A stretch of 64,000 nt of DNA. Source: Escherichia coli (GTDB taxonomy: Bacteria; Pseudomonadota; Gammaproteobacteria; Enterobacterales; Enterobacteriaceae). The notes under the pieces are model-generated. The model ran no database searches. It saw only the letters and a list, made by a program, of their open reading frames with translations, and was not told the origin of the DNA. Positions 17,328 to 29,157 of the stretch are shown one piece after another (position 1 is the stretch's first letter; every line of letters starts with the position of its first letter). The translations under genes and the position numbers were made by a program. The stretch lies in assembly GCF_003991155.1 (NCBI RefSeq), contig NZ_CP031293.1. One strand, written 5' to 3'.

Positions 17328-17996
17328 ATGATTCGCTTTGAACATGTCAGCAAGGCTTATCTCGGTGGGAGACAGGCGCTGCAGGGCGTTACGTTCCATA
17401 TGCAGCCGGGTGAGATGGCGTTTCTGACCGGTCATTCCGGCGCAGGGAAAAGTACCCTCCTGAAGCTGATCTGTGGGATTGAGCGGCCCAGCGCCGGGAA
17501 AATCTGGTTTAGCGGCCATGACATCACGCGTCTGAAAAACCGTGAAGTTCCGTTTCTGCGCCGCCAGATTGGCATGATTTTCCAGGATCACCATCTACTG
17601 ATGGACCGTACTGTCTACGATAATGTGGCGATCCCGCTGATTATCGCCGGTGCCAGCGGTGACGATATTCGTCGCCGGGTGTCGGCGGCACTGGATAAAG
17701 TCGGGCTACTGGACAAAGCGAAGAACTTTCCTATTCAGCTTTCCGGCGGTGAACAACAACGTGTTGGCATTGCCCGCGCGGTGGTGAACAAGCCTGCGGT
17801 ACTGCTGGCGGATGAACCGACCGGTAACCTGGACGACGCGTTGTCGGAAGGCATTTTACGTCTGTTTGAAGAGTTTAACCGCGTTGGGGTAACCGTATTG
17901 ATGGCAACGCACGACATCAACCTGATCTCGCGGCGTTCCTATCGCATGCTCACCCTGAGCGATGGTCACTTGCATGGAGGCGTGGGCCATGAATAA
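17328..17996 (+). CDS. ftsE: Cell division ABC ATPase FtsE
   Basis: ORF track 222 aa; Walker [10 protein letters not shown], signature LSGGEQQR. Confidence 0.95.
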
Positions 17997-19047
17997 GCGC
18001 GATGCAATCAATCATATTCGGCAGTTTGGCGGGCGTCTGGATCGCTTCCGTAAATCGGTCGGCGGCTCTGGCGACGGCGGTCGTAACGCGCCAAAACGGG
18101 CGAAATCCTCGCCAAAACCGGTAAATCGCAAAACCAACGTTTTCAACGAACAGGTGCGCTATGCCTTCCACGGCGCATTGCAGGATCTGAAAAGCAAACC
18201 GTTCGCCACGTTTTTAACGGTGATGGTTATCGCCATCTCCCTGACGCTGCCCAGCGTCTGTTATATGGTGTACAAAAACGTTAACCAGGCGGCGACGCAA
18301 TATTATCCGTCACCGCAAATCACTGTTTATCTGCAAAAAACGCTGGACGATGACGCCGCTGCGGGCGTGGTGGCACAGTTGCAGGCCGAGCAAGGCGTGG
18401 AGAAAGTGAATTATCTTTCTCGTGAAGACGCACTGGGCGAGTTCCGTAACTGGTCTGGTTTTGGTGGTGCGCTGGATATGCTGGAAGAAAACCCGCTTCC
18501 GGCAGTGGCGGTGGTGATCCCGAAACTCGATTTTCAGGGGACGGAATCACTGAATACGCTGCGTGATCGTATCACCCAGATCAACGGCATTGACGAAGTG
18601 CGGATGGATGACAGCTGGTTTGCCCGTCTGGCGGCGTTAACCGGGCTGGTCGGGCGCGTTTCCGCGATGATCGGCGTGTTGATGGTGGCAGCAGTGTTCC
18701 TCGTCATCGGTAACAGTGTGCGCCTGAGTATCTTTGCTCGCCGTGACTCCATTAACGTGCAGAAACTGATTGGTGCGACGGATGGTTTCATCCTGCGCCC
18801 GTTCCTATACGGAGGCGCATTGCTGGGATTTTCTGGCGCATTGTTGTCATTAATTTTGTCAGAAATTCTGGTGCTGCGATTGTCATCGGCGGTTGCGGAA
18901 GTGGCGCAGGTTTTCGGAACGAAGTTTGATATCAATGGTTTATCGTTCGATGAATGCCTGCTATTGCTGCTGGTATGCTCGATGATTGGCTGGGTGGCAG
19001 CGTGGCTTGCCACGGTACAACATTTACGCCACTTTACGCCTGAATAA
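17989..19047 (+). CDS. ftsX: Cell division ABC permease-like protein FtsX
   Basis: ORF track 17962..19047; start moved to ATG at 17989 ([12 protein letters not shown]), overlapping the ftsE stop; 352 aa. Confidence 0.93.
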
Positions 19048-19063
19048 TAAAAGCGTGTTATAC

Positions 19064-19099
19064 TCTTTCCCTGCAATGGGTTCCGTAGCAGGGAAAGAG
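19064..19099 (+). terminator. Perfect 12-bp-stem hairpin downstream of ftsX (no T-tract)
   Basis: ctctttccctgc ... gcagggaaagag read directly; lacks a following U-run so termination efficiency is uncertain. Confidence 0.4.
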
Positions 19100-19149
19100 A
19101 CCCCGTTGTCTCTTCCCGGTATTTCATCTCTATGTCACATTTTGTGCGT

Positions 19150-19291
19150 AATTTATTCACAGCGTTGCATTGAACTTGTGGATAAAATCACTGTCTGATA
19201 AAACAGTGAATGATAACCTCGTTGCTCTTAAGCTCTGGCACAGTTGTTGCTACCACTGAAGCGCCAGAAGATATCGATTGAGAGGATTTGA
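19150..19291 (+). promoter_or_regulatory. rpoH upstream promoter region (multiple promoters expected)
   Basis: Established knowledge that rpoH is driven by several promoters upstream of the ORF; exact elements not resolved here. Confidence 0.45.
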
Positions 19292-20146
19292 ATGACTGAC
19301 AAAATGCAAAGTTTAGCTTTAGCCCCAGTTGGCAACCTGGATTCCTACATCCGGGCAGCTAACGCGTGGCCGATGTTGTCGGCTGACGAGGAGCGGGCGC
19401 TGGCTGAAAAGCTGCATTACCATGGCGATCTGGAAGCAGCTAAAACGCTGATCCTGTCTCACCTGCGGTTTGTTGTTCATATTGCTCGTAATTATGCGGG
19501 CTATGGCCTGCCACAGGCGGATTTGATTCAGGAAGGTAACATCGGCCTGATGAAAGCAGTGCGCCGTTTTAACCCGGAAGTGGGTGTGCGCCTGGTCTCC
19601 TTCGCCGTTCACTGGATCAAAGCAGAGATCCACGAATACGTTCTGCGCAACTGGCGTATCGTCAAAGTTGCGACCACCAAAGCGCAGCGCAAACTGTTCT
19701 TCAACCTGCGTAAAACCAAGCAGCGTCTGGGCTGGTTTAACCAGGATGAAGTCGAAATGGTGGCCCGTGAACTGGGTGTAACCAGCAAAGACGTACGTGA
19801 GATGGAATCACGTATGGCGGCACAGGACATGACCTTTGACCTGTCTTCCGACGACGATTCCGACAGCCAGCCGATGGCTCCGGTGCTCTATCTGCAGGAT
19901 AAATCATCTAACTTTGCCGACGGCATCGAAGATGATAACTGGGAAGAGCAGGCGGCAAACCGTCTGACCGACGCGATGCAAGGTCTGGACGAGCGTAGCC
20001 AGGATATCATCCGCGCGCGCTGGCTGGACGAAGACAACAAGTCCACGTTGCAGGAACTGGCTGACCGTTACGGCGTTTCCGCTGAGCGTGTGCGCCAGCT
20101 GGAAAAGAACGCGATGAAAAAATTGCGCGCTGCCATTGAAGCGTAA
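19292..20146 (+). CDS. rpoH: RNA polymerase sigma-32 factor RpoH
   Basis: ORF track 284 aa; sigma-70 family regions 2 and 4, RpoH box-like segment. Confidence 0.97.
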
Positions 20147-29087: not shown

Positions 29088-29157
29088 TGTCGGATGCGTT
29101 TCGCTTATCTGACCTGGCATCGCGTGTAGGCCGGATAAGCGAAGCGCATCCGGCACA
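29088..29157. repeat. REP element pair
   Basis: gtcggatgcgtttcgcttatctgacc and tgtaggccggataagcgaagcgcatccggca read from sequence. Confidence 0.65.

Follow-up and report, generated by a model that had tools for sequence, protein, structure and literature searches.

The hairpin between the cell-division gene ftsX and rpoH, which encodes the heat-shock sigma factor, of Escherichia coli is probably a stem-loop in the 3' tail of the ftsYEX mRNA that lacks a U-tract and that both defines and protects the 3' end of this message, in the manner known from Rho-dependent transcripts. The evidence for this reading comes from a published transcript end just past the stem and from the compensatory changes by which the stem is kept across the Enterobacterales. 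The locus was analyzed within a 64,000-nt stretch of E. coli DNA, hereafter the window, and all coordinates refer to this stretch unless MG1655 is named.

The Hairpin and Its Locus

The region is near-universal in the species, with positions 18950-19350 finding a match at 95-100% identity in 5425 of 5426 complete E. coli genomes, where the two genes are annotated as ftsX and rpoH. The stop codon of ftsX, a TAA at 19045-19047, is immediately followed by a second TAA, and the gap from ftsX to rpoH is 244 nt. The length from the hairpin to the rpoH ATG is identical in MG1655 and in the window, so that coordinates convert directly as window = 19292 + (3,600,783 - MG1655 coordinate). The features to which we refer are listed below in their order along the plus strand.

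17989-19047, plus strand: ftsX coding sequence, last gene of ftsYEX (open reading frame list, sequence, and annotation in 5425 E. coli genomes)
19056-19064, plus strand: extended -10 element of rpoH P1, TGtTATACT (sequence; its position fits a start 8 nt downstream)
19063-19074, plus strand: left (5') arm of the hairpin, CTCTTTCCCTGC (sequence, fold, inverted-repeat search, and pair counts)
19072, plus strand: rpoH P1 transcription start, the 10th base of the left arm (MG1655 3,601,003; SMRT-Cappable-seq)
19075-19087, plus strand: loop of 13 nt (fold), hypervariable between genera in both sequence and length
19088-19099, plus strand: right (3') arm, GCAGGGAAAGAG (sequence and fold; its GCAGGG is invariant in 34 Enterobacteriaceae sequences)
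19100-19180, plus strand: pyrimidine-rich spacer with C exceeding G, a candidate Rho loading region (GC skew and lineage comparison)
19105, plus strand: steady-state 3' end of the ftsYEX primary transcript, 6 nt past the last paired base (MG1655 3,600,970; SMRT-Cappable-seq)
19108-19117, plus strand: GTCTCTTCCC, a potential pairing partner of the right arm within P1 RNA (predicted fold of P1 RNA)
19292-20146, plus strand: rpoH coding sequence, reached by P1 transcripts (ATG at 19292)

The inverted repeat spans 19063-19099 and its arms are complementary at 12 of 12 positions. The initial annotation had described a perfect 12-bp hairpin at 19064-19099 with a 12-nt loop; the perfect stem stands, whereas the repeat begins one base earlier and the loop measures 13 nt. 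Within that loop the RNA fold places an inner 4-bp helix, 19076-19079 with 19083-19086, which closes a loop of 3 nt. The 37-mer folds at -24.5 kcal/mol compared with -8.2 +/- 2.3 for dinucleotide shuffles (z = -7.0), with 0/200 shuffles being as stable, and the RNA of the minus strand has a nearly as stable fold. The stem begins 16 nt 3' of the ftsX stop codon, a distance that leaves the hairpin clear of the terminating ribosome. The tail that follows, ACCCCGTTGT, is without a T-run and contains just 3 T in its first 10 nt, and a terminator scan made no call at the hairpin site.

By our own arithmetic, chance would give ~0.15 perfect 12-bp arms per 64 kb at a spacing within 40 nt, and inverted repeats of 11 nt or longer number just 19 in the window. 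A chance origin of this repeat is ruled out because it is conserved with covariation, as described below. Membership of the REP or BIME repeat family was also considered and rejected, the hairpin being single-copy per genome and in the window and lacking the REP consensus: each of 5425 E. coli genomes has it at one place, a pattern search of the window for the 12-mer returned no second copy apart from its own mirror image, and a covariance model of the element matched only this locus in the 64 kb. A scan of 18500-19800 against Rfam 15 gave no match covering 19040-19130, even at E <= 10. Elsewhere in the window, at 29088-29155, there is a REP-like inverted repeat with 28-nt arms that are 86% complementary (GCCGGATAAGCG...GCATCCGGCA).

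A Transcript End and a Promoter at the Hairpin

Full-length transcripts carrying a 5'-triphosphate have been tabulated for E. coli MG1655 by SMRT-Cappable-seq (PMC6131387, supplement). Among them is a reverse-strand transcript, 3600970-3604315 (NC_000913.3), which covers b3464|b3463|b3462 (ftsY, ftsE, ftsX) and whose end is labelled 'novelTTS', while another reverse-strand transcript, 3599880-3601003, covers b3461 (rpoH) (PMC6131387). A TTS is here a site at which read 3' ends accumulate with statistical significance, and 'novel' denotes absence from the EcoCyc sets compared (PMC6131387). Mapping of 3' ends had been put forward in the initial annotation as a check on the hairpin, and the outcome is favorable, as the ftsY|ftsE|ftsX transcript end at 3,600,970 corresponds to 19105. 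This position and that of the rpoH start at 19072 carry an uncertainty of 1-2 nt. On our own reading of the read columns, which are unlabelled, 633 reads begin at the ftsY start, 146 end at the site and 69 pass it, and on the same reading of these columns the passing reads have a median extension of ~70 nt, which is short of rpoH. Curated Term-seq lists from three growth conditions hold no 3' end at the hairpin, a weak negative since no ftsX primary end is listed there (Adams 2021; PMC7815308).

The start at 19072 lies 220 nt upstream of the rpoH ATG and 8 nt after the TATACT hexamer. The last two bases of the extended -10 are the first two of the left arm, and the pattern TG-T-ATA--T is invariant in the 34 Enterobacteriaceae and 20 Enterobacterales sequences that we compared. 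Together, the start and the invariant extended -10 identify this as the distal sigma-70 promoter P1 of rpoH, which is reported to lie slightly more than 200 nt upstream of the start codon (Erickson 1987; Ramirez-Santos 2001). The hairpin had been placed just upstream of the rpoH promoter region, a description that needs correcting, as it overlaps P1 and spans from about -9 to +28 of it. As P1 starts inside the 5' arm, its RNA retains 3 nt (UGC) of that arm, too little for the stable hairpin to form. The transcript published for P1 extends to the rpoH terminator (PMC6131387).

Two further observations concern the neighborhood of P1. The SMRT-Cappable-seq table lists another rpoH start at 19228 (MG1655 3600847), 64 nt upstream of the ATG and with TGaTAACCT 9 nt before it. 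Additionally, a direct repeat, TTTAC-N5-TTTAC, occupies 19023-19037 in the last ftsX codons, ~35-50 nt upstream of the P1 start; it reads GTAAA-N5-GTAAA on the minus strand, resembling a CpxR box, and is conserved to Yersinia, Serratia, and Dickeya, which is ambiguous as the region is also coding.

Conservation and Covariation

Within the species, the hairpin is invariant in six aligned strains, an alignment that includes variants sampled from the 5425 genomes with the locus. A C/T difference at 19101, two bases past the hairpin, is a common E. coli polymorphism in a setting where the hairpin of the aligned strains does not vary. For other genera, a scan of a genome collection with RpoH gave mostly distant Gammaproteobacteria, and Enterobacteriaceae were hence sampled from metagenome contigs, with E. 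coli excluded, using a 21-nt pattern for the sigma-E promoter P3 and DnaA box. This pattern lies downstream of the hairpin and does not include it, and was placed there to sample genera without bias toward the hairpin. The scan yielded 119 loci with 44 distinct hairpin-region sequences, and FtsX identity places some of these loci in Klebsiella pneumoniae, Citrobacter, Atlantibacter, Kosakonia, and Yokenella-like organisms.

All 44 sequences have a hairpin at the same site, with folding energies of -17 to -27 kcal/mol and a single exception at -13.9 from a low-coverage contig. The conserved TGnTATA(A/C)T lies directly 5' of the hairpin in these sequences, and in none of them does a T-run follow it. 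The core, CTTTCCCTGC/GCAGGGAAAG, is nearly invariant, with the upper stem CCCTGC/GCAGGG being the best-conserved part of the hairpin, and the arms are separated by 13-19 nt of hypervariable sequence. In the set of 34 distinct Enterobacteriaceae sequences, 91-100% form any given pair of the 10-bp core and five core pairs show changes on both sides, a number reached by 0/500 shuffles; conservation in this set does not extend to the outermost two pairs of the E. coli stem.

The more distant Enterobacterales were obtained through their FtsX proteins. Salmonella keeps the stem around a 15-nt loop, and Yersinia enterocolitica has an identical 12-bp stem with a different loop of 14 nt. The Serratia stem, CTCTTCTCCTGC/GCGGGAGAAGAG, carries two compensatory pairs and one G-U, and that of Hafnia, CTCTTCCC/GGGAAGAG, shows the matched loss of one T and one A. 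Altered stems are also found in Dickeya (TTCCCCCG/CGGGGGAA), Rahnella (TCCCCCTG/CAGGGGGA), and Brenneria (TTCCCCTGTG/CACAGGGGAA), while Photorhabdus has an unrelated 8-bp stem in the same place. Morganella and Providencia (L208 1672-1720; L209 1678-1725) have unrelated, strong hairpins of 12-15 bp, without the extended -10 and without a U-tract on the gene strand. Acerihabitans (L004 1285-1400) keeps the extended -10 after ftsX and has no comparable hairpin, which counts against the explanation that we favor. A T-run after the stem was found in none of the lineages examined. Beyond this order, the hairpins that follow ftsX in Vibrio and Aeromonas look terminator-like by eye and the terminator scan made no gene-strand call on them; given this result, we make no claim of an ancestral intrinsic terminator.

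Twenty Enterobacterales representatives were aligned with MAFFT on sequence only, the alignment not being fitted to the structure. In this alignment, 86% of cells are paired, compared with at most 59% when the 3' partner columns are slid, and compensatory changes occur in 9 of 13 pairs (22 cells). The covariation score is 0.291, in comparison to 0.179 +/- 0.018 for shuffles (0/500 as high) and at most 0.153 for slid partners. Because pairing and covariation exceed both the shuffled and the slid controls, the hairpin structure is, as judged from the alignment, under selection. Covariation had likewise been named at the outset as a check, and the stem has indeed been kept with compensatory changes across the Enterobacterales. 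Counts of G-U and A-C mismatches display no asymmetry and do not indicate which strand is selected. A conserved small open reading frame through the region was rejected, as the indels of the alignment are not multiples of three.

The hairpin adjoins the -10 in all lineages that possess both, including Dickeya, where the distance of both from the stop codon is 22 nt greater. The nesting of P1 in the hairpin is presumed to be selected, although the data fit selection for compact insulation and the inheritance of an ancestral arrangement alike.

Formation of the ftsYEX 3' End

The distribution of the compensatory changes bears on which RNA the pairing serves. In fifteen of the 22 compensatory cells, the 5' member of the pair precedes 19072, and such pairing is therefore selectable only in RNA initiated further upstream, that is, in the ftsYEX message. 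These pairs, and the weakness of the hairpin that is left in P1 RNA (see below), place the main function of the hairpin at the ftsYEX 3' end. Transcripts from the ftsY promoter carry both arms; they would form the hairpin, and their 3' ends would build up 6 nt past the base of the stem. The hairpin would in this way set the 3' end of the operon and shield it against 3'-to-5' exonucleases. A 3' stabilizing structure for ftsYEX was among the first suggestions made for this sequence, and it is supported by the end at 19105 and by the covariation, with the stabilizing effect itself being presumed.

The hairpin had been judged unlikely to be an efficient intrinsic terminator, which agrees with the absence of a U-tract in every lineage examined and with the negative terminator scan. 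A weak rU:dA hybrid is needed for intrinsic release. At the mapped end, the final 9 nt of RNA, GAGACCCCG, would form a G+C-rich hybrid with the template, and intrinsic release at 19105 is improbable because of this terminal hybrid and the missing U-tract. Polymerase probably continues into the pyrimidine-rich spacer, in which C exceeds G, and would be stopped there, most plausibly by Rho, after which the tail beyond the hairpin would be trimmed back by exonucleases. P1 transcripts, without most of the 5' arm, would skip the stable hairpin and continue into rpoH.

The composition of the spacer is consistent with such a role. Its GC skew is -0.21 at 19100-19179, compared with positive values in the flanking genes, and C exceeds G over the 80 nt past the right arm in 20 of 20 lineages tested, a mild effect. 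A bicyclomycin-sensitive region has been called in the ftsX-rpoH intergenic space, at 3,600,870 or 19205 in the window, with a Rho score of 1.92 and p = 1e-11 (PMC7815308). This score rests on windows of 800 nt and its coordinate falls on the position at which transcription from the sigma-E promoter P3 is expected to begin, and the bicyclomycin sensitivity may reflect promoter induction rather than Rho termination.

The intergenic region contains several other elements. Published Term-seq tables list a very strong 3' end at 19271-19273 (MG1655 3600804/3600802), 21 nt upstream of the rpoH ATG, with a low intrinsic-terminator score (1.2) and flagged as inside a Rho termination region; it could be a stop or cleavage point of P1 or read-through transcripts. 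An inverted repeat at 19188-19209, TCACTGT-CTGATAAA-ACAGTGA, takes in the -10 as well as the start site of P3, the sigma-E promoter; it is called terminator-like on the minus strand by the scan and is perfect in this strain, with one mismatch in MG1655. Further downstream, at 19236-19251, is a sigma-54-type element, TGGCAC-N5-TTGCT, whose TGGCA and TTGC cores are kept in Citrobacter, Enterobacter, and Salmonella, and an RpoN holoenzyme binding peak has been reported between ftsX and rpoH (PMC8743547).

A 3' end 6 nt past the stem is also compatible with release at the hairpin itself. The hairpin would then be a non-canonical terminator that lacks a U-tract and releases the RNA a few nt past the stem, possibly aided by NusA or NusG and involving neither Rho nor trimming. 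The distance comes close to the 7-9 nt at which intrinsic terminators typically release the RNA, the stem has a very high stability, and the 146 reads that end against the 69 that pass would suggest a fairly efficient stop, if the unlabelled columns are read as we read them. However, the U-tract is missing from every lineage, the scan is negative, and a G+C-rich hybrid such as GAGACCCCG is at odds with the weak rU:dA hybrid of established models. On balance, we consider direct release unlikely and favor the protected 3' end set out above.

Possible Roles in the P1 Transcript and Other Alternatives

As the hairpin always adjoins the P1 -10, even in Dickeya, and as its best-conserved part is the upper stem, the element might instead serve the RNA of rpoH P1, either as a 5'-terminal stabilizing stem-loop or as part of a leader with alternative pairings. 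A small 5'-terminal hairpin is possible in P1 RNA; however, a start at 19072 leaves 3 bp of the main stem, and the residual hairpin is weak, at -4.5 kcal/mol in E. coli and -1.5 in a Klebsiella-like sequence (L082), with an overall range of -0.9 to -9.6. In its apical part, structure does not consistently exceed that of shuffled sequences, RNAalifold returned CUGC/GCAG as the sole conserved helix of the P1 leader, and most of the compensatory changes touch bases that are absent from P1 RNA. We accordingly hold a role in P1 RNA to be improbable.

A related idea is that the hairpin, the nested promoter, and the pyrimidine tract form a device that senses where a transcript originated and gates the access of Rho. 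In RNA started upstream, the left arm would capture the purine-rich right arm, leaving the C-rich tract single-stranded for Rho, which would then cut off ftsYEX transcription before rpoH. In P1 RNA, the right arm would pair with the pyrimidine tract (GGGAAAGAGAC with GUCUCUUCCC in E. coli), hiding it from Rho, and P1 transcripts would thereby reach rpoH. The alternative pairing of right arm and tract, in which the tract acts as a downstream copy of the left arm, is predicted in the fold of E. coli P1 RNA. It beats the composition expectation in several of the Enterobacteriaceae, where z reaches -3.6, but Yersinia, Hafnia, Dickeya, and Rahnella lack it, and RNAalifold gave no conserved helix for it. 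As a model built on predicted folds, a switch of this kind strikes us as doubtful in the extreme and on a par with a role in P1 RNA.

Mapped 3' ends are steady-state ends and could be cleavage products, and some reads appear to pass the hairpin. It could thus be a site at which RNase III or RNase E splits an ftsYEX-rpoH co-transcript, affecting the rpoH message from the upstream operon. Typical RNase III substrates comprise roughly two helical turns. The stem here, of 12+4 bp, is shorter, the passing reads extend by a median of only ~70 nt and stop short of rpoH on our own reading of the columns, and we know of no matching 5' end downstream of the hairpin; processing at this site is very unlikely. 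Action at the DNA level, either as a palindromic operator to which a P1 regulator binds or as a cruciform through which P1 becomes supercoiling-sensitive, is barely credible, for although the repeat spans from about -9 to +28 of P1 and the mismatch counts are compatible with a strand-symmetric constraint, the variable arm spacing of 13-19 nt and the hypervariable interior are unfit for a protein of fixed geometry, the arms change compensatorily instead of staying fixed, and a transcript 3' end maps at the stem base.

Comparison With Known Systems

Among known systems, a U-less hairpin that protects the end of ftsYEX mRNA comes closest to a class that Dar and Sorek have described, in which the steady-state ends of Rho-dependent transcripts lie directly after stable stem-loops without a U-rich tail (PMC6061677). 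Past these stem-loops C mildly exceeds G; termination occurs diffusely at some distance beyond them, after which they shield the transcript from PNPase and RNase II (PMC6061677). The ftsYEX hairpin resembles these cases in being a stable stem-loop soon after a stop codon and without a U-rich tail, in having its 3' end directly past the stem with mildly more C than G downstream, and in belonging to an operon of low expression (PMC6061677). It differs from them in also housing the -10 and start site of the next gene, and at ftsYEX both the dependence on Rho and the exonuclease trimming are presumed by comparison with this class (PMC6061677).

Other systems share some of these properties. Canonical intrinsic terminators have stem-loops of similar size and energy and a 3' end a few nt past the stem, but differ in their U-tract of ~7-8 nt, whereas the ftsYEX hairpin has no U-tract after it, no A-tract before it, and a G+C-rich hybrid. 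Like the REP elements that stabilize 3' UTRs, it is an extragenic palindrome after a stop codon and could block exonucleases, unlike them it is single-copy and does not have the REP consensus. The ompA leader is an example of a 5'-terminal stabilizing stem-loop; P1 RNA similarly begins with a few paired bases, but its residual hairpin is weak and the structure is not conserved. In TSS-dependent read-through, the fate of a transcript at a site depends on its start position, as it does here (Yan et al., 2018; PMC6131387). The cause at ftsYEX is nevertheless structural and absolute, since the start site lies inside the 5' arm, which sets it apart from that phenomenon (PMC6131387).

Implications

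In the literature that we searched, we found no discussion of a hairpin between ftsX and rpoH. It is a well-supported further example of the known mRNA-end structures that lack a U-tract, with one unusual feature, namely the promoter nested in its 5' arm, and it leaves the current understanding of termination and of rpoH control unchanged. As a 3'-end hairpin without a U-tract it is clean, conserved, and genetically tractable, and since mutations can be made in its right arm that leave the promoter intact, the locus is useful for testing how hairpins control the ends and the stability of mRNAs. Overall, the hairpin would account for ftsYEX and rpoH staying transcriptionally separate across 244 nt, because transcripts that start at the nested promoter are unable to form the structure at which the upstream message ends.
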